From NCBI GenBank assembly GCA_013265495.1, contig MU058198.1, positions 4,104,419-4,168,418 on the forward strand: a stretch of DNA of 64,000 nucleotides, in the 5' to 3' direction. Below the pieces are notes generated by a model, which did not search any database, was not told where the DNA came from, and saw only the letters and a program-made list of their open reading frames with translations. The position numbers and the translations under genes were made by a program. Positions 18,415 through 59,424 of this stretch are shown here, one piece after another; the stretch's first letter is position 1, and each line of letters starts with the position of its first letter. Origin of the DNA: Vicugna vicugna. Taxonomy: Eukaryota.

Positions 18415-19090
18415 TTTTTTAACAATCATGAACTAACGGAAAAGTTGGAAGTGCAGAAGAAGAATTCCCCCCACCCCCGAACCATTTGAGAGTTAAATTG
18501 TTGACACAATCTGAAAGTAGACCCAAACTCATGCTGCATCACCCCGGAATAGTGTATATTTCCTACATGCTAAGAAACTGTCTTGCATAACCTCAATACA
18601 ATGATTGAAATCAGGAAATAACACTGATATCATTTAATCCTCAGACCTTTTTTAGATCCCTAATTATCTGAATGATGTCTTTGTAGAGAAAGGATCCAGT
18701 GCAGAATCAAGCTTTGTTTTTAGTTGCCGTATCTCTCTAGTCTCCTCTGACTAGTCTTTCTTTGATTTTCCTAACCTTGACACTTTATTACAAGCCAGTC
18801 ATTTTGAAGCATGCCCCACAATTTAGTTGGTCTGAGGTTTCCTCATGATCAGGTTCAAGTTATGCATCTTTGACACGAATAGCACAAAGTGATGCTGTAT
18901 TCTTGTTGCATCCTACCAGGTCGTACTAGATTTTGAAGTTTCTGTCTCTTGGTGATGCTCACTTTGATCATTTAACTGAAAAGGTATCTGTCAAGCTTCT
19001 CTAATGTAAAGCTATTCTTTTTCCTTTTACATTTATAAGTATTTTGTGGGAGGTGTTTTGAAATTTTGTAAATATCCTGTTCCTTGCCAA
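18415..19090 (-). mobile_element. L1MC-like 3'UTR remnant (probably resumes at ~22745-22880)
   Basis: GAACCATTTGAGAGT..., TTTCCTCATGATCAGGTTCAAGTTATGCAT, CACTTTGATCA pattern; related copies at ~35690-36180 and ~42330-43560. Confidence 0.6.
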
Positions 19091-30938: not shown

Positions 30939-30992
30939 ATGGCGCTGGTGCAGCGGCTCGGGCCTCTCCCCGCGGCGCTGCGGAGGGCTTGA
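30939..30992 (+). other. upstream ORF, 17 aa (MALVQRLGPLPAALRRA*)
   Basis: AAAATGG strong Kozak context; TGA at 30990-30992; lies in exon 1 if transcription starts near the ETS site. Confidence 0.65.
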
Positions 30993-31043: not shown

Positions 31044-31048
31044 ATGAG
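31044..31048 (+). CDS. TNRC6A: TNRC6A coding exon 1 (ATG AG; M and part of R)
   Basis: ATGAG|GTGAGC donor; splices in frame to 31455 to give MRELEAK, the recognised N-terminus of the long TNRC6A isoform. Confidence 0.9.
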
Positions 31049-31454: not shown

Positions 31455-31502
31455 AGAATTGGAAGCTAAAGCTACCAAAGACGTAGAAAGGAATCTTAGC
31501 AG
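31455..31502 (+). CDS. TNRC6A: TNRC6A coding exon 2 (48 nt; ELEAKATKDVERNLS)
   Basis: Long CT tract + CAG acceptor, CAG|GTAAGA donor, frame continuous with exons 1 and 3. Confidence 0.95.
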
Positions 31503-33720: not shown

Positions 33721-36274
33721 GCCACCTCCACTTTTCTAGATTTTCATGTTACCTGAAAATAGCCAAATATTTGGATTTTCAATGTTCAATGTGTAAGTGC
33801 TAAATATCTTTTAATACTGTAGAACTCCAGATTCCCACTGTGTAGACCCCCAGGTTTGGAAACTCTAGTCTCTGAATGAGTGATGACATTATATGGCCAT
33901 TTTCCTTTTCCTCTGCTAAGGTACAAACAAACCCTTAAGACAGTGTGCCGGGTAACCAGTGCCAGTTAAAAGTGGCACAGTAGGTAAATTTAGTTGAACA
34001 TATGAGGTAGGCTTAATTCACGGATGGCCATTAAAATTGTCGCTTTTTGTTGGTATCCCGGCCATTCAGGAGAGGGAACTATCATGTCTAGATCTGAGTG
34101 ACCACCATTGGAACTAAACTTTAAAAAATAGAATCAATTTTGAAAGGCAGAGAAAAGGGCAATATAGGAACAACAGCAGAAACAAAGGGACAAAATCCAG
34201 AAAGTACAGGGACTTTTGAAATAGCAGTAAGTAGTTCAGTTGGATTGGCATAGAAGAATGGGGGCAGGTGTAGTTTCTTGAATAGCAGGTTGAGGACTTT
34301 TTGCATAACTCTTACATTGTGGAGAGCTATTACATGCTTTTAGGTAGAATGGTGATAGGATAGAAAACTATAACTAATTATTTAGGCAAGAGGTGGTAAA
34401 GATCTGAATTACATGTTAGTAGAAAAGAGGGGAGAGTGTGAGATACTAAAGACATGGAATCTGGGGTTTGGCAGCTAATTAGTCTGGGATCAGTTGTGAG
34501 AGGACTCTGAATTCACAGGGGTCTTCACATCTTGGGTGAGTGAGAGATTGACCCAGCCTCTGAACAGGGTACTGGTGAGAAAAGGAATAGGAGTTTGGGA
34601 AGAGAAGATGATAAGTTACAGTTTAGAGTTGTAGAAAAATCTGTTCTAACTCAATTTCTCTGGTTTTAAAAAAAACAAACAAGCAAACCATATTGTGGAG
34701 TCCAAGGTGATAGAATTGCTGAGTACTTAAATCTGGGCCATGATACCAGCTAGTATTCTGATCCCTTCGTTTTACAAGTGAGAAAGCCATGGCCAAGTTA
34801 TATTCTTTAACAAGTGACAGAGCTGGGGTTCAAACAGGCCTTGTGACTGTAACCATAGGGTTCTTCCAGCTAGGCAGTATTTTATATTGCACAATAGAAA
34901 AAAGATGACTTTGGTTTCTCCTTTCTGAAAATGTAAAAATTACGCCAACATAGTTTGTGGCCATTTTACTAATTTACTATATTGTTGAGTGTATTGTCTA
35001 AAGTAGAAGTTACATGCTTCATGTTACACTGATTTTTTTTTTTTGAAAACCAGCATGAAATGCCATCATGTAAGAAGAGTTGTGTATGCTGTGTACCATA
35101 TAATGTAACATCTGAACTGGGACATTTTTATCTGAGACATTTTTGCCTGGGACATGCTAAATAAGAAAAGACTGAGGGACAGAAGGAGTAAATCAGGGTG
35201 TTAGGTCTTCCTATGTAAGGTGGACCCTGCTCTTGGAATTCATCAACTTTTATCTGAATTTAAAAAAAAAAATCATCTGATTTTGTTAAGCTTTTCTGGT
35301 TTTTTTTTCCCCCGTGAAGTTTGTAGGCCAACAGTTTCATATTGGTAGGTTTCTTTCAGCTGTGTGTTATATCAGTAGGTAGGATAAATGAATCACAAAC
35401 TCTAAGCTTAATTTTTAAATGTGTAACAACCCTCTATGGAAAATTTAAATATACACATCATTAAAAAATCAGAGTACCGTTCTGTAACCTTGCAAATTTT
35501 GGCATCTGAAGTAAGTCTGCAACGATAAATTAGAGTCCCTTGCAGTTGTGTTTCATGACAGCCTCAAAAGTGTTGTCCATAATTGGAAAGACTGAAATAG
35601 ATATTTGCTGTATCTATTCTGCTTGGACTGACTTATGACGTCTTTTAAAATCAAGAAAGTGTCATCCCATTTAAAAAGTTTTAAAAACTCATCCTAACAT
35701 TCAGCAAAGTGGCAAGAATAGTGCAACCAACACCTGCATCTCTGTCTAGGTTTACCAGTTGCTAATATTTTGCCACATTTGTTCTGTGATGCCCCTTCAT
35801 CTCTAAGTAAGACATCATTTATCTCCCAGGAACAAGCGCATTCTCTATAACAGATAACATGATTATCACACACTGGGAAGTTTAACTTTGTTACAGTACT
35901 GTTTGGTCCATGTTCACTTTTTCCCAGTTGTCCTAATAATATCTTTGTTCTTTTCTCTCAATTCCTTAATCCAGGGTTGAGTTTAGTTGTAATTTCCTTT
36001 TATCAGGAGCAGTTCCTTATCCATTTATTCCCCTTTCATGACATTGACGTTTTGGAATAGTCCAAACCTTTTGTTCTTGCAGGCTTCAATTTGGATTTGT
36101 CTGGTTGTTTCTGTATATGGTTCAGGTTAAAACTTCTTGGCAGGAATAACACATAGGTGATGTGTTCCCAGTGCGTCACTTCAACCTCCCTCCCCCACCA
36201 CTTTGAAGGAAATAAACTGAAAGTTTACCCAGCACTTTTACCTTTACACTAACTCAGTGTTTCTTTCATTTTAG

Positions 36275-36300
36275 GATATGCCAAAAAATGTGAAACTGAG
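36275..36300 (+). other. TNRC6A: candidate alternative 26-nt exon in TNRC6A intron 2
   Basis: Branch point CACTAAC (36247-36253), pyrimidine tract, TAG acceptor, GAG|GTATAA donor; its ATG (36278) is in frame with exon 3. Confidence 0.5.
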
Positions 36301-36880
36301 GTATAATTTTAAATAGTTGAGGTTACAATAATTATAAGACTTCATGTTTAAATTGGTCAGCTGTAATGATTGCAGCTTTTTTGAAGTGTTATTCTGAAGG
36401 TAGCTCTTTTATTGTTAGACGTAAAAGTTGCCTGTTTTTGGCTCTCACAGTAATAAACTGATAATCCTGCTAAGAAAATGAAACATAGGGCTGGACTTGT
36501 GATATACATTCTTCAAAAGAATGCCCCATTGAAATTAGAGTGGCATTGTGCTGACAGAACAGGGGTTCTCATCCTGGATTCCACAGAGGGACCACAGATG
36601 GTGTGAAGTAGTTTGAGAAATTGAATGTGTGCTTTAAAAAAAAAAAAAAAGGAAAGGAAAAAAGATAGTCCTTAGCATTTATCAGATTTCAAAGGCTCAG
36701 AGCTCCCCAAAGATTAAGAAACCTTGTATTATAGGGAGGATGTGAGAGAAGCTGAATAATCTCAAGAAAAGGGAGATTTTAAGATTTAAAAGAGAGAAAA
36801 TAACATTAGACTAAGGCATAGGTTCTCTCAAAAAAAAAAAAAAAAGAAAGAAAAAGGAAAGAAAGAAAAGAAGAAATTAT

Positions 36881-37337
36881 GTCCCTCAGTATCTGAAGGG
36901 GATTGATTCCAGAACTCCCCGCCCCCCAGGATACCAAAATCCAAGGATGCTCAAGTCCCTTATACAAAATGGCATAGTATTTGCATATAACCTAAGTACA
37001 TTCTCCCATATACTTTATTTATTTTTAAAATATTTATTTTTAATTTTTATTTTTTAAAATTTTTGAGGGGGGAGGTGATTAGGTTTATCTGTTTATCACT
37101 TTTGGTTGGGGTACTGGGGGTTGAACCCAGGACCTCGTGCATGGTAGGCACGCACTCTACCACTGAGCTGTACCCTCCCTCCTCTCATATACTTCAAATC
37201 ATCTCTAGATTACTTATACCTGATATAATGTAAATACTACGTAAATAGTTATAAATACAATGTAAATGCTATGTAGATTGTTGCTAATGTATGGCAAATT
37301 CATGTTTTGCTTTTTGGAACTTACTGGAGGCCAACTG
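36881..37337. mobile_element. MER2B-like Tigger MITE interrupted by a SINE
   Basis: GTCCCTCAGTATC...GGATACCAAAATCCAAGGATGCTCAAGTCCCTTATACAAAATGGCATAGTATTTGCATATAACCTA...GGAGGCCAACTG followed by TA. Confidence 0.8.
37016..37181 (-). mobile_element. tRNA-Ala-derived SINE (camelid vic-1-like)
   Basis: Reverse complement of the SINE; TSD CTC(C/T)CATATACTT at 37003-37015 and 37182-37194. Confidence 0.9.
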
Positions 37338-42329: not shown

Positions 42330-43565
42330 AGCTTTTTATTTTAAAATAATTTCAGTCCTAGAGAAATTTTTTAAGAACAGAGCAAAAGATTCCTGAATAT
42401 CCTTCATCTGTATTCCTTGAATATTGACATTTAACCACATTTACTTTCTCATTTTCTTTCTACAAGCATATTGGACAAACAAACAAAAACAAAGCATAAA
42501 TACATGACAGAAATAGACTCATAGACAGAGAATACAGTCTTGTGGTTGCCAGGGGGGCGGAGGGTGGGAAGGGATAGACTGGGATTTCAAAATTGTAGAA
42601 TAGCTAAATAAGATTATACTGTATAGCACAGGGAAATATACACAAAACGTTATGGTAGCTCACAGAGAAGAAAATGTGACAGTGAGTGTGTATATGTCCA
42701 TGTATGACTGAAAAACCCCCCCGCCCTGGACTATTTGAGAGTAGCTTAGAGATGTGATATCCTTTTACCCCTAAAAACTTAAATATTTATTTCCTAAGGT
42801 CAAAGACATTTTCTTAGTACAGTGCCATTATTAAAATTAGAAAAGTACTATCAGTAGAATCTTAATAGCAAATCTACAAACCTTACTCAAATTTTGCCGA
42901 TTGGCTCAATAATACCTTTTAGAGCAAATCAGAAAAAACCCTTTTTTTTTTCTGGCCTAGGATTTAATGTAGGAATACATTGGGTTTTCATATTTGCTTA
43001 ACCACCTGTGTTCTGGAACAGTTTCTCAGTCTTTCTTTGTTGTTGAAGACCTTGATATTTTTAAAAGAGTACAGGCTGGTTATTTGGTCAGATGTCCCTC
43101 TGTGTTTGTCTTGATTAGATTCATGTTGTGCACTTTTGGCAGGATTAGCACAGGACTGATGTGTTCTGCTTAGTGCATCATGTCAAGAGGAGCACGATGT
43201 CCATTTGTCCCATTATTGGTGATGGTAACTTCAACTACTTGGTTAAGATGTGATATATGTTGGGTTTCACCACTGTAAAGTTAGTATTTTCCCCTTTGTA
43301 ATTAATAATGCTATTGTTGGAAGAACTTTGAGACTATGTAAACATCTTATTTCTCATTGAGATTCTTGCCTGAATCAATGCATTGCCAAATAGTGATTTT
43401 CTAAGTCCATTATTCTTGCTGCATTAGTTGACATTCTACTGTACGATCTGCATCTTTACCCTATTAATTCATCTGTTCATTCGTTTATTCATATCAGTAG
43501 GGACTCATGGATTCCTTTTTTATTCAGTGGGTTGTAATCCTTTACTAGCATTATTTTATTGCTCA
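42330..43565 (-). mobile_element. L1MC-like 3'UTR remnant, with a younger + strand L1 3' fragment inserted at ~42475-42715
   Basis: CTATTTGAGAGTAG, CACTGTAAAGTTAGTATTTTCCCCTTTGTAATTAATAA; insert ACAGAAATAGACTCATAGACA...CTGTATAGCACAGGGAAATATA. Confidence 0.7.
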
Positions 43566-48750: not shown

Positions 48751-48887
48751 CTTTAAACATTTTTTTTTTAGGGGAAGAGGTTATATTAGTTTATTTAATT
48801 TTTATTTTAATGGAGATACTGGAGATTGAACCCAGGACCTGGTGCATGCTAAGCACATACTCTACCGCTGAGCTAAACCTTCCCCCT
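48751..48887 (-). mobile_element. tRNA-Ala-derived SINE (camelid vic-1-like)
   Basis: Reverse complement of the SINE; perfect 16-bp TSD GTCACTGTAACATTTT at 48735-48750 and 48888-48903. Confidence 0.92.
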
Positions 48888-51620
48888 GTCACTGTAACAT
48901 TTTAATCACACAGAGATTTGTTCTCATTCTAGGTCCAGAACTTGCGTATTTGAGGTGTCCTACTAACTTTCAGGGAATCAATGATTACTGAATGTAATTG
49001 CTGGAATGCTGTCTTTGTGGAGCATGTAGCAAATATGATGGACCACTTAGACCTATTAAATCTAATCAACCCATACTCCTTTTGATAGATATGGTGAATT
49101 ATAGAATTAAATATCTTAAACAGATCTCCACCAGCATTTAAATTCTGCAAGTGAAGTGTTTTAGCACAGGTGGTATATTTATATATATTTTTTCCAGTTG
49201 GCTTTCTGAAGGAGATGTGGGAAAAGTGTGGTTAGTCCTCTGTGATAACAGTGTTTTTTCTTCTGTGCTTCTGGTATTGACTGATACTATAATATTTCCT
49301 TGAGGAAATGCGGTACATCTTTTAAGTACTGCAAGACTATTTTTGGACAGGAAAACACTTGCTAATGTCATCAAAAAGCCTTCAAAATGAAGTTTGAGAA
49401 GGGAGGAGAAATTCCAGGTAAATAGTAAAGAAACATCCTATAGAGTAAAATTAGAGGGACAGAGAACAAGATTTAAAAAGGACTTGTCCGTAATTCACAG
49501 GCAGACACAAAGAACAGATGCTGAAGATTTGGTGTTTCTGTATGATAAGTGATTCTGAATGTCTTGACAAAAGCAGAGTACAGTCTTTGGGGTGTCACTG
49601 AGAATTGGGAGAGGATTCCTGACTAGATGTTTGTGTACTTAAATAGGTTAAGGAAGCACTCCTTATTTAAACCTTATAAAAATGTTATAGAGTAGGTGCA
49701 TACAGTAATTTAGCCTTCGTTTAATGAAGAAACTGAGGCTGAAGAAGATTGAAGTATTTAGAACTAGAAATCAGCTTTTGTTGAGTAACATTACAATGGT
49801 GTAACTTAATTGCCTTTGTTTACTAATTTTACTTTCATGCTGCGGCTTTCTTGATCCTTGGCTTCCAAGGATTATAGTGAGTGAGCTTGCTCACTCTCAT
49901 TACCTCCCTCACACAGAATGCTAGTGAGTCATGGTTACAGTTGGCCTGAATGTGCTTTGCGACTCTCTTAGCCACATGACAGAGCTACAGAACAAAATGG
50001 CAGTGGAATGCAGCAAGTTACCATCCTCTTCTTCCATCTTCTGATTTTACCAGTCATATACTTAACTTTACTAAGTTATCAGTTATACATAATGTCACTC
50101 ATTTTGTTTTTCACTGTCTTCCTGCATCTCCTCTCAGTTTCTTCCATCAGCAAAGCTAACTTAAGTTTTGTGTAATCTCATTACAGTGCACCCACAGTAC
50201 CCACCTCTAGTTTCTAAGGTATTTGTCTGTGTTTCTCATTTTATCTTCTACTGCATCCCCTCTGCTGTATGCATGCACTCAGCCTTTATAAATTATTTAC
50301 CGTTTCCCAAATGTCTAGTTCATGTCCCTTGAACCTCTCCTTTTCTGCCTGATATTCATCATGTCCCCTCTGGAATGCTTCCTCAGGGCAGAATTAGGTA
50401 CTTTTTCTTTGTGTGTTGATTTTAAGTATCTCATGATTTTTGGTTGTCTGTTGTAGTGAATGAAGGTTTAGGTTCTAAACTCTAGGGTAATTAACGTATG
50501 TAACTTGAGTTAAGTTTCTCCCAACTTTGCATAGATTTCATTACCGAGTAGCCCCCTACCTTGAAGAGGTGAGGGTGGGGGTGCTCATGTGGAGCTCTGT
50601 GTGTATGAAGGGTTTTGTTTGGCAAGTTTCATTTCAGAATGTTTCTTTGTTTTTAGGCTGGATTTAAATGCATTGGCTACTTGTGGCCAGGTCGGCATAG
50701 GGATGGGAGGACTTGAGTAGGTGTGGCCTTTCTATTCCTTACACAGTCTTTGCTCCGTGCTCATCTCTGTTCAGTTGGCCATGATCGTGGAGCCTCTCTG
50801 GAGCTCCACCAGAGGATGGCACATACAGACATTTAAGATTTCTCTTATGTTTATATCTTCCTTTGCTCTTGTTTATTCATCAGCTCTGAATGGATTTGGT
50901 ATTTTTTCCTCTGTCATTTCAGTGAGGTAGAGTAGAAAGGAGGAGGCAAACACATTTGTACAATCATTTTGAAATCCTGAGCCAGGGGTTCTTTGGGCAA
51001 CTTGGAGCATTTCTGATTTTAAGAATTGAAACAAACTTATATAATGAGTGCATTATGGGTTGTTTCCTAAGCATTGATAGAATAGTTTGGAATGTTTACA
51101 GAATATGAAATTATTGTGATGCTAAAATACAAGTCATCTATTTATGAGTAAGTTGTGTTCTAAAAATAGTTACAAAGCTTTTTAGAGGAAGGAAGGCTGA
51201 AGATACCCCCAGGTACCTGGGCAGGAGAGGACTGTGGGAGACGATCCAGGCATTGCCATTAGCCACTAATTGATAATTGGGGCCAGAAGCAAGGTGACTG
51301 CTCATGAGATGATGTTTACATTCTAGAATTGGAGGGAGTTGCTTATGTCCCAGTGTAAAATTTGCTAACTTTAGGTTGCCTTCCTTGATATAACATTAAA
51401 ATAAAAAGCTCCACTGATTGTGACTTACTAAAGAAAAATACTATATAGTGGCTATATAGTTAGATTGAGGTTGAAAGTTATGTTTTATTTCAATGAAAAA
51501 ATGATAAAAATAATTTGCCATGTCTTTACTTTCTAATAAGAGTAAAAATGAATCTGTATGCAACATTATTTTTATTTCTTAATACATTTTGGGAAAGTTA
51601 ATTGCAACTGTGTGGTTCAG

Positions 51621-51708
51621 GGATTTAGTGCAAGAAGAAGAACAGTTGATGGAAGAAAAGAAAAAGAAAAAAGACGACAAGAAAAAGAAGGAAGCTGCTC
51701 AAAAGAAG
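51621..51708 (+). CDS. TNRC6A: TNRC6A coding exon 3 (88 nt; [29 protein letters not shown])
   Basis: CAG acceptor, AAG|GTAGTA donor; peptide recognised as the TNRC6A N-terminal Lys/Glu-rich segment; phase matches exons 2 and 4. Confidence 0.95.
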
Positions 51709-54700
51709 GTAGTATATGTATAAACTAATTATTTACATTAAGCAGTTTAAACATAGATTAAAAAAGAAAATTACTCTTACTGGATTATTTAAAACATTTG
51801 ACTTAATGTTTTAACTTTAGTGGAGATTTATTTTAATATTTAATGTCTTTGAATATGCATATATTGTAACTTGGTAAGTGTGTACAATTTAATGCATATT
51901 TAATTTTGCCAATCCTTTTTTTCAAAGGTAAGTGCTTTGTATAGGTCTTTATTTTTCAATTAGATATTCTTAGGTTTTCTTAATACTTACATCATTTTAC
52001 ATTATTTATAAGTGAGAAGAGCGTGGAATTTGTGGCTGCATAGAGAGGATTTGAAATCTGGCTCTCCACCATAGCATACAGAACGGTGTGGCCTTTAACT
52101 TTATTTAGCCTCTCTGGGCCTTAGTTTTCTTATGTTTTGTAAAGTGAAAGTTGAATTAAACAAGGTAATATGTACACATAATAATACGCATAATAGAAAA
52201 TGAAATCGTAAGAATAGCAAACACAATAGGAAATAAAATGTCAACTTCCTTTTCTCTTTAGCTCACTTTTTATATTTGCAGATTACATTAGAATATTTAA
52301 AAATAAGCCTAAGACATAATTGCTGCAAAAGATCTCTAGCCAATACACTATCAAAAATGTAATCAAAGCAACACAAATGGCAGAAAAGTGGAAGTCTATA
52401 ATTATAAAGATTTTTGCAAATTAATACTAAAGGCTGATGACAGTTAACTAAGCTGGACATGCATCTCCTGTATCAAGGTTTCAAGGATCTTAAAAATGTT
52501 CTAAAAGACCCAGTGGAACTACTGTTCCATGTCTGTATTCTAATGAAAAATGATGACGTAGTTTTTAATATATACCTTTTTTGTGCTAGGAACTGGATAC
52601 AGACTGTAGCAACATACTTGCCTCCACATTATTTAGTAGGAAAAAGAACAGGATACAAAACTGTGGCAGGGAGAGAACTGTTCAGCCAGAGAGAAGTGCT
52701 TAACTTGGCCTGAAATGGGGCAGAGGGACAGCGAAATTTTCTTGGAATAGAAATGAGCCAAGTGAATAAGAAGCAGAATAGAAAATAATTCTAGCAGCAT
52801 AAACTTGGAGCTAAGCATCTCTAGACTGTATGTGTTAAAGTACGGATTTTGACTGGAGGTGAATAGGTGGTGGGAAGAAGCCAAATACAGAAATGTCAGG
52901 GGCTGAGACTGGTGAGGTTGGTCCTAGCTCTTGGTGCTTTTCCCATTTTAGCCATTGGGTGTTGGGGAAAACACTGAAGACATTTTAGTAGAGTGACATA
53001 AAAATTTATAGTTTGGAATGTTTACCTTGGCAAATTGTGGAATTGGATTGGAAGGGGTAGAAACCAGAGACTGAGATACTGGTGAAGGGACTATTAAAAG
53101 AATCCACAGAATTTGTTGAAAGGGTGTGAAGGAAGGGTAACCTACGTTGACTCTTAGGTTGCAGGCTGAGTGGCTAAGTACATTTTGGGAGCAGTTAACA
53201 AGGGATACATGGCAAGGTGAAAAGAAATACAATTCAGTTCTGTACTTGCAGGGTTTGGGGTGTGATCAAGCAAGCAAACTGGGGAGGGGCAGAGTACAGA
53301 GCACTGTGGAGGACTGGAGGATTAAGAGTGATGAGATGCGTTGATACACTAGGTGGCCCTTGTTATTGGCCTTGTAGTTACTCAGGAGTGACTGGGAAGA
53401 GATGCACTGGTAATTGCCATAGGACTTGGAGTAGGTTTCTAGTATACAGTTTTGGCATTGGTATTGCCTTAGGCTCCTGTCAGAGGCCTCTTGGTATGGG
53501 ATGGTCTTTGCAGTTTGATCAGTCTTTGCTCAGGCTTTGTTATGAAAAAGTTTCATTCTCTGTAAGTCTAAGGTTGGGGTAAGACATCAGATTCTTGTTT
53601 TGTGGTGTGAAGTCCAGTACTTAATGAAAAGATCCGCTAAGAAGCTTGAGATTTATTGAGGAAGATGCTTGGGTATACTTTATGTAGAATCGTTAGTTTG
53701 GCAAGCATCTGGGTGATGTATTAGGCCATGCTGATCCCTACTTCTAAGGAGTTCAGGATTTAGCTGGTAAGTCAGGATGCATATGAAATGGTTAAAGAGA
53801 CCTTAGAGAAGAGGCCATAAGTTGTCATATAATGAAGCATATTTATTTGAATTTGCTCTGTTTACTGAGGAAATTCTACAAAAGAAAGGAGTCACTCAAA
53901 TGATTTCTATAAATATTGTGTTTTTTTTTAATTGAGTATAATTGACATACAACATTATGGTAGTTTCATGTGTAGAATATGATTCAGTATTTGTATGTAT
54001 TGTGAAATGATCACTGTAGTAAGTCTAGTTAACAATTATATCCGTACATAGTTGGGAAATTTTTTTCTTATGATGAGAACTTTTAAGGTTTTAAATACTT
54101 TGTTTTTAAAATGTGTAATGTGAGTACAGTTTTGTTGAAACATATATAATGACTCTAATTGTCAAAGTTTATCTTTATATTCTTCCATAACCAAATCTAA
54201 GTCACCAAGTCATTGTCTTTAACACACGAATGATGATTTTTGTGCTATTTGGCTTCTCACCAAATCAGAAGTGACAGTTCTTCATACTCTTTACCACTCC
54301 ATCCCTGCCTCACCGTATGGTTCCAGTCTCTCACCCCAACTATGTCCTGCTAGAACCATCATCAGAGGCTTAGAGATTTGGGGAGGTTTTTTTTCTTTTG
54401 CTAGATCTTCATCATTGATAGAAATTCTTATGTATCCTATAGACAACAATATCTAGCCACTGAACATAATATAAAGGAATATTTAATACCGCTAAAAAAT
54501 GTTAAGTTTAGTAGACTAAACTGCCACTGTAAATAAGACTGTTCTCCAAGTTCTAAATAACCAGCTTACAGCTGAATTTGGATGCAGCCCATTGGTGAAG
54601 TGAGGACAGCTGGTATTTCTGTAGGCTGTTACCAGATAGCTCTTAAAAAACAAAACAAAAGGAAAAATCTCCCAGGTTGGCACACTTATAGCCCATGTGA

Positions 54701-59402: not shown

Positions 59403-59424
59403 GCCACTGAACAAAAAATCAAAG
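59403..59424 (+). CDS. TNRC6A: TNRC6A coding exon 4 (22-nt microexon; ATEQKIK); CDS continues beyond the window
   Basis: Long T-rich tract + TAG acceptor, AAG|GTACGT donor; continues ...AAQKK-ATEQKIK. Confidence 0.93.

Follow-up and report, generated by a model that had tools for sequence, protein, structure and literature searches.

A candidate 26-nt exon with a near-perfect branch point in intron 2 of TNRC6A: pseudo-exon or regulated cassette?

Introduction

TNRC6A is a core microRNA-silencing gene. Its 5′ part lies in the stretch of DNA analysed here (64,000 nucleotides, referred to below as the window), and the long intron that follows its second exon raises the question of whether a further exon lies hidden there. 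The original prediction had placed such an exon between exons 2 and 3 and had given it one of two roles, that of an NMD poison exon or that of an N-terminal switch. TNRC6A occurs in the N-terminal isoforms GW220, GW195 and GW182, of which GW220 nucleates GW/P bodies (PMC3514032).

The TNRC6A Locus and the Splice Signals of the Candidate Exon

The following parts of the gene frame the candidate:

whole window, plus strand: 5′ part of TNRC6A, a placental mammal gene
31044..31048, plus strand: ATG1, where the long isoform starts in a weak initiation context, up to the end of the coding part of exon 1
31455..31502, plus strand: exon 2, 48 nt, upstream partner of the candidate, placed by splicing at the coordinates and by its match to named proteins
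51621..51708, plus strand: exon 3, 88 nt, downstream partner of the candidate
51649-51651, plus strand: in-frame ATG of exon 3, Met27, with G at +4
59403..59424, plus strand: exon 4, 22 nt, a real microexon that served as the calibration case

Intron 2 of TNRC6A measures 20.1 kb. Translation of the spliced coordinates gave the N-terminus of the named TNRC6A proteins when exon 2 was joined to exon 3 directly, with the candidate left out. Exon 3 is itself bounded by weak splice sites on both sides (8/15 pyrimidines at 51600-51620 and 5/11 U1 matches at 51709-51716); its peptide is highly conserved despite these sites, and the intron sequence beside it has an identical translation in several placental genomic ORFs, i.e., its flanks are conserved as well. 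Upstream of ATG1, a uORF of 17 codons (30939-30992) lies in a strong context and in the frame of ATG1, with its stop about 50 nt before that codon. The equivalent uORF stop is read through into TNRC6A in the unnamed protein P0010, and the marsupial protein P0077 has the same leader in another frame; taken together, the two proteins suggest that the TNRC6A leader is conserved.

The candidate exon, called X below, is delimited in intron 2 by these elements:

36247..36253, plus strand: branch-point consensus CACTAAC, branch A at 36252 (-23)
36260..36274, plus strand: pyrimidine tract and 3′ splice site AG, TTTCTTTCATTTTAG, 12/15 pyrimidines at -18 to -4
36275..36300, plus strand: candidate exon X, 26 nt, in TNRC6A intron 2
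36301..36308, plus strand: weak candidate donor GTATAATT (GTATAA), 6/11 U1 consensus matches, no G at +5
36400..36407, plus strand: competing donor for the X acceptor, better-scoring, 7/11 U1 matches, no G at +5

The branch point, the tract, the AG, the 26-nt exon and the GTATAA donor were each found where the original prediction had placed them. Its "hidden exon" is thereby confirmed as a sequence pattern, in both signals and spacing, and not as a spliced exon. Scored with approximate splice matrices, the X acceptor reached 7.9 vs. 3.4 for the real exon 3 acceptor, and the donor at 36400 reached 6.1 vs. 2.8 for the one at 36301. The X donor matches U1 at 6/11 positions, compared with 5/11 for the real exon 3 donor, and because that real donor is equally weak, weakness alone is no bar to the use of the X donor. 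When the acceptor at 36275 is paired with the donor at 36400, the exon is extended to 125 nt (36275-36399), and it then closes the ATG1 frame as well as the frame of the ATG in X.

Expectation by Chance

The motif YACTRAC occurs three times in intron 2, and only the copy at X is paired with a tract and an AG by a rule-based caller. The rule, which was set after X had been seen, combined a branch point, a tract, YAG and an AG/GTR donor within 60 nt; X was its sole match in the whole intron, and the antisense strand gave none. Among 100 introns simulated with an order-3 Markov model, 12 contained at least one match to the rule, 3 contained a match together with an in-frame ATG, and 58 matched when the branch-point rule was loosened. 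With the approximate matrices, the X acceptor was equalled or bettered by 33 of the 1245 AG sites of intron 2 and the X donor by 188 of its 1239 GT sites, and 140 acceptor-donor pairs lay above similar matrix cut-offs. X therefore exceeds the chance expectation only modestly. What distinguishes it is its branch point, which is near-perfect and at the right distance.

The coding properties of X were set against 20,000 random exons with lengths of 6-60 nt. A frameshift or a stop resulted from 80% of these, an in-frame ATG was supplied by 11%, and in 6% the in-frame ATG also had a purine at -3. Because of the first two rates, the poison property of X says almost nothing and its ATG says little.

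Sequence Surroundings of X

One repeat lies close to the candidate:

35785..36175, plus strand: old interspersed repeat, separated from the branch point by about 70 nt, with X outside it

This repeat, which may resemble the 3′ end of L1MC, has further copies in the same orientation at 42753-43176 and 18534-18895, three in the window overall. A transposon origin of X was considered and rejected, as X was missed both by a SINE-like profile (25 matches to E 20) and by a profile of the upstream repeat; the rejection holds within the sensitivity of these profiles, both built from copies in the window. Folding of 36200-36420 gave no unusual RNA structure (z -0.76, 47/200 shuffles as good). No Rfam family was found near X, and intron 2 as a whole gave only two tRNA-like matches, neither of them close to X. 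These lie at 37107-37177 and 48811-48882 (- strand), in a repeat pair of 80% identity, and are most likely the heads of tRNA-derived SINEs.

Among the regulatory motifs, the branch point contains ACTAAC (36248), a site of the dual SF1/QKI type, and a TAAT QKI half-site at 36304 overlaps the donor. There is no second ACTAAY in 36100-36500, where the nearest separate TAAY is the one at 36304, on the other side of X. The same interval has no RBFOX motif TGCATG. No TGC occurs between 36173 and X, the nearest upstream copy being at 36172, 103 nt before X.

Coding Consequences of Inclusion

Splicing by coordinates with X in the mRNA brings the ATG1 frame to a stop at codon 24, inside X, and the ATG at 36278, which has G at -3 and C at +4, then shares the reading frame of exon 3; the original prediction was correct on both counts. 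With its G at -3, this ATG has a better context than ATG1. We also agree that leaky scanning is the route by which ribosomes would arrive at it: the ATG at 36278 sits within the ATG1 reading frame, and for this reason re-initiation after ATG1 cannot reach it. In the product initiated in X, 8 residues (MPKNVKLR) replace 18, and the polyQ and GW regions are unaltered.

The original prediction did not include Met27 (ATG 51649), which lies 35 nt past the X stop in the inclusion mRNA, nor the point that a stop as early as this may escape NMD. As in AS-NMD exons, the X stop is located more than 50-55 nt before later junctions, from exon 3/4 onward. Beta-globin stops up to codon 23 escape NMD according to PMC3273812, and by this analogy a stop at codon 24 would fall at the edge of the escape zone, where NMD may be partial. 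Re-initiation 6-243 nt after a stop is described as feasible and able to stabilise mRNA in PMC6614817; contrary to this, PMC10187673 describes re-initiation without robust protection from NMD. We infer that inclusion of X would result in partial decay together with a protein shortened by 26 residues, and not in a clean poison or a clean switch. An annotated start at the equivalent of Met27 was found in 11/177 proteins, mostly TNRC6C paralogues. This methionine could rescue any frame-breaking event in TNRC6A exons 1-2.

Evidence on Use in RNA, DNA and Proteins

Of 24 sequencing runs, six were of RNA type (three recorded as RNA and three guessed). In these six runs of a relative, which belong to four studies, 0.49-0.55 of 55 words from 36000-36600 were present, a measure that is silent on splicing and conservation. 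Exact patterns for X (21 nt) and for an exon 2 control (20 nt) each had 0 matches in metagenome contigs, and because the control was blank too, the blank for X is uninformative.

The search for the X peptide in annotated proteins, suggested together with the original prediction, was negative: none of 177 TNRC6 proteins contained MPKN, KNVK, NVKL, VKLR, ICQK or CQKM in the first 300 residues, and a start resembling MPKNVKLR was seen in none of 20 spliced placental-type N-termini. The placental-type start of exon 3 was present in 28 proteins, where it followed exon 2 in 18, an alternative first exon in 2, genomic read-through in 8 and X in none. Only a small number of placental sources are named for these proteins, namely Chinchilla, Callithrix, Cebus, Myotis and one EukProt entry, with no large placental cluster. 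The protein negatives are more telling for the switch than for the poison exon, because a poison transcript leaves no protein and because placental sampling is thin.

The junction between exons 2 and 3 is variable in other proteins. The models of Chinchilla, Callithrix and Cebus have an upstream first exon joined to exon 2 or exon 3. Eight bird proteins (P0027, P0095, P0097, P0099, P0102-P0104 and P0106; Heliangelus, Phaethornis and Hirundo) carry a 12-residue in-frame insert (AFLPHLCGTERR) between exons 2 and 3, and the isoform P0098 is free of it; the insert is apparently a conserved cassette of birds, carried here by hummingbird and swallow models. Homology of X to this insert was rejected, the best ungapped score in intron 2 being 23 vs. 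a self-score of 79. The junction thus appears flexible, tolerating cassettes and new N-termini, with X not implicated, and such tolerance keeps the rival readings of X alive.

Published Splicing Events of TNRC6A

The human NMD list of PMC7347940 holds two TNRC6A rows, an exon at chr16:24778344-24778468 (125 nt) and a 3′ site at 24809482-24815354. The unannotated-junction list of PMC8091538 holds one, in which a 5′ site at 24777224 connects to 24789231; its splice-site letters encode KRGQHF, which belongs to the polyQ exon, and the beginning of the exon that follows. If both lists share a genome build, these rows place the human 125-nt NMD exon after the polyQ exon, so that it is not X. None of the three TNRC6A rows in these two NMD-linked lists, which cover few cell types and another species, is an intron-2 event. 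As a poison candidate for the long isoform, the human exon at chr16:24778344-24778468 has better support than X.

We also rejected the identification of X with a KCl-/activity-regulated exon of mouse Tnrc6a, as the two of four rows seen in PMC12129014 are an Ago-hook exon of ~33 nt and an exon of ~147 nt, both further 3′. TNRC6A was absent from the microexon supplements searched, namely those of PMC4317164 (all but file 1), PMC7821500 and PMC11188260 (all but file 13), and from the 11 supplement files of PMC13004596, out of 20, that were searched. Because these supplements do not contain exon 4 either, a real exon of 22 nt, such blanks carry no weight. The literature search found no paper on a TNRC6A intron-2 exon, and the passages of PMC12271549 that were covered held nothing relevant.

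Likeness to Known Systems

X resembles the pseudo-exons or cryptic exons of long mammalian introns in its plausible branch point, tract, AG and GT, in breaking the frame and in showing no sign of use; it differs from them in its unusually good branch point and its microexon length. SRRM4-type neural microexons are defined by a UGC close upstream of the 3′ splice site. X shares with them a length below 28 nt and a strong branch point, but it has no UGC before its 3′ splice site, its 26 nt are not a multiple of three, and its donor is weak; the near UGC and the frame-preserving length of the SRRM4 type are thus both absent.

The AS-NMD poison exons of RNA-binding-protein genes offer a parallel in the human TNRC6A exon itself (PMC7347940), which belongs to the same gene and likewise has its stop far before many junctions. 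The human exon of 125 nt, however, follows the polyQ exon, whereas the stop in X is at codon 24 with a Met 35 nt behind it. RAI14 exon 11, which QKI represses and SF1 activates, has in common with X an ACUAAC branch site near the 3′ splice site (PMC13004596), and X carries the ACUAA(C) of QKI/SF1 targets at its branch site (ACTAAC at 36248, A at -23). In RAI14 the ACUAAC elements are tandem, at -34/-43, and strong QKI repression needed both; X has one together with a downstream half-site. The GW220/TNGW1, GW195 and GW182 forms exemplify the N-terminal variation of TNRC6A that X would also give, but these (PMC3514032) gain or lose the polyQ region or ~253 residues, while a form initiated in X would alter only the first 18. 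As for alternative N-termini generally, the ATG of X is in frame with the downstream exons.

Competing Readings of X

The indirect evidence leans against both the poison exon and the N-terminal switch, and X is probably a pseudo-exon, silent or spliced at noise level. Our weighting of the readings is a judgement in which a modest prior for unannotated cassettes in genes of RNA regulators is balanced against the rate of chance occurrence, near 0.1 for an intron of such length. On the pseudo-exon reading, a 20-kb AT-rich intron would by chance have brought together a branch point of good quality, a fair tract and a donor that is weak; an exon of 26 nt with neither a donor +5G nor an upstream UGC (SRRM4-type) or TGCATG (RBFOX) enhancer would be poorly defined, and the spliceosome would join exon 2 to exon 3 almost always. 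Rare inclusion would then be splicing noise, cleared by NMD or rescued through re-initiation at Met27, and would serve no function under selection. Sites of a similar kind abound (140 pairs; 12/100 simulated introns), the coding coincidences are cheap (80%, 11% and 6% of random exons), there is no TGCATG or near TGC, the X peptide is found in 0/177 proteins and the human lists have no intron-2 row. Against the pseudo-exon stand its near-perfect branch point at the right distance, the only one of any intron-2 candidate, an acceptor that outscores that of exon 3 and a donor whose U1 match is no weaker than that of exon 3. In addition, X is unmatched by the two in-window repeat profiles, a bird cassette is located at the same junction, and the negatives are weak, given the thin placental sampling, poison transcripts that leave no protein and the few human cell types.

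It is rather unlikely that X is a real low-level cassette by which the long isoform of TNRC6A is attenuated. Inclusion would be promoted by SF1 at the ACUAAC and repressed by QKI, which would bind this branch site together with the UAAU half-site that follows the donor; ATG1 would then open a 23-codon upstream ORF, and the mRNA would go partly to NMD and partly to re-initiation at Met27 or beyond, leaving GW220/TNGW1 lower where QKI is low. The quality and spacing of the branch point speak for this, and the literature documents competition of SF1 and QKI at ACUAA branch sites (PMC13004596), another human TNRC6A NMD exon (PMC7347940), feasible re-initiation 6-243 nt past a stop (PMC6614817) and the importance of isoform balance for GW/P bodies (PMC3514032). 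Other points tell against it: strong QKI repression of RAI14 took two ACUAAC elements and X has one in 36100-36500, X is missing from the two human NMD-linked lists, and protection from NMD by re-initiation is disputed (PMC10187673 vs. PMC6614817). That the acceptor is real and works with the donor at 36400, giving a plain 125-nt poison exon with both frames stopped and no new N-terminus, is quite improbable, even though this donor has the better score (6.1 vs. 2.8) and more U1 matches (7/11 vs. 6/11) and the exon would have an ordinary size. The donor has no +5G, and the human TNRC6A NMD exon of equal length lies past the polyQ exon and is thus different.

A switch, in which ribosomes would bypass both the uORF and the weak ATG1 by leaky scanning and start at 36278 on a functional TNRC6A beginning MPKNVKLR, is highly improbable. 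The frame is correct, the ATG with its G at -3 is better than ATG1, and annotated TNRC6A isoforms have varied N-termini joined to exon 3; set against these are the 0/177 proteins and 0/20 spliced placental-type N-termini, a chance rate of 11% for an in-frame ATG, the need to leak past two upstream ATGs, one of them in a strong context, and a product in which merely 8 residues replace 18. The layered start-site control of TNRC6A that the original prediction had suggested from the uORF and X finds no support other than their co-occurrence. We likewise give little credence to the joint claim that X is a conserved QKI-gated microexon which would create a 23-codon uORF, escape NMD through AUG proximity and send ribosomes to its own ATG, Met27 or the GW182 start, with tissue tuning of the GW220:GW182 ratio and of GW/P-body formation as part of the same claim.

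Significance and Further Observations

As the pseudo-exon that we favour, X would be of little import, except in marking a place at which an exon that breaks the frame could be switched on by a variant that strengthens the donor. A real and regulated X would let splicing act on a core effector of microRNA silencing, the long isoform of which nucleates GW/P bodies (PMC3514032). It would also be a natural test of whether a stop at codon 24 escapes NMD when an in-frame Met is close by. Even then, all of its parts (poison exon, AUG-proximal escape, re-initiation, QKI/SF1 competition) would be of kinds already known.

Frame changes were also observed at the 5′ end of TNRC6A in marsupials. In the annotated isoforms P0074, P0076-P0078 and P0081 the frame is shifted over exon 3 or exon 4 and is restored at exon 5, which would imply skipping of the 22-nt exon 4 or of the 88-nt exon 3; these are possible frame-switch events.
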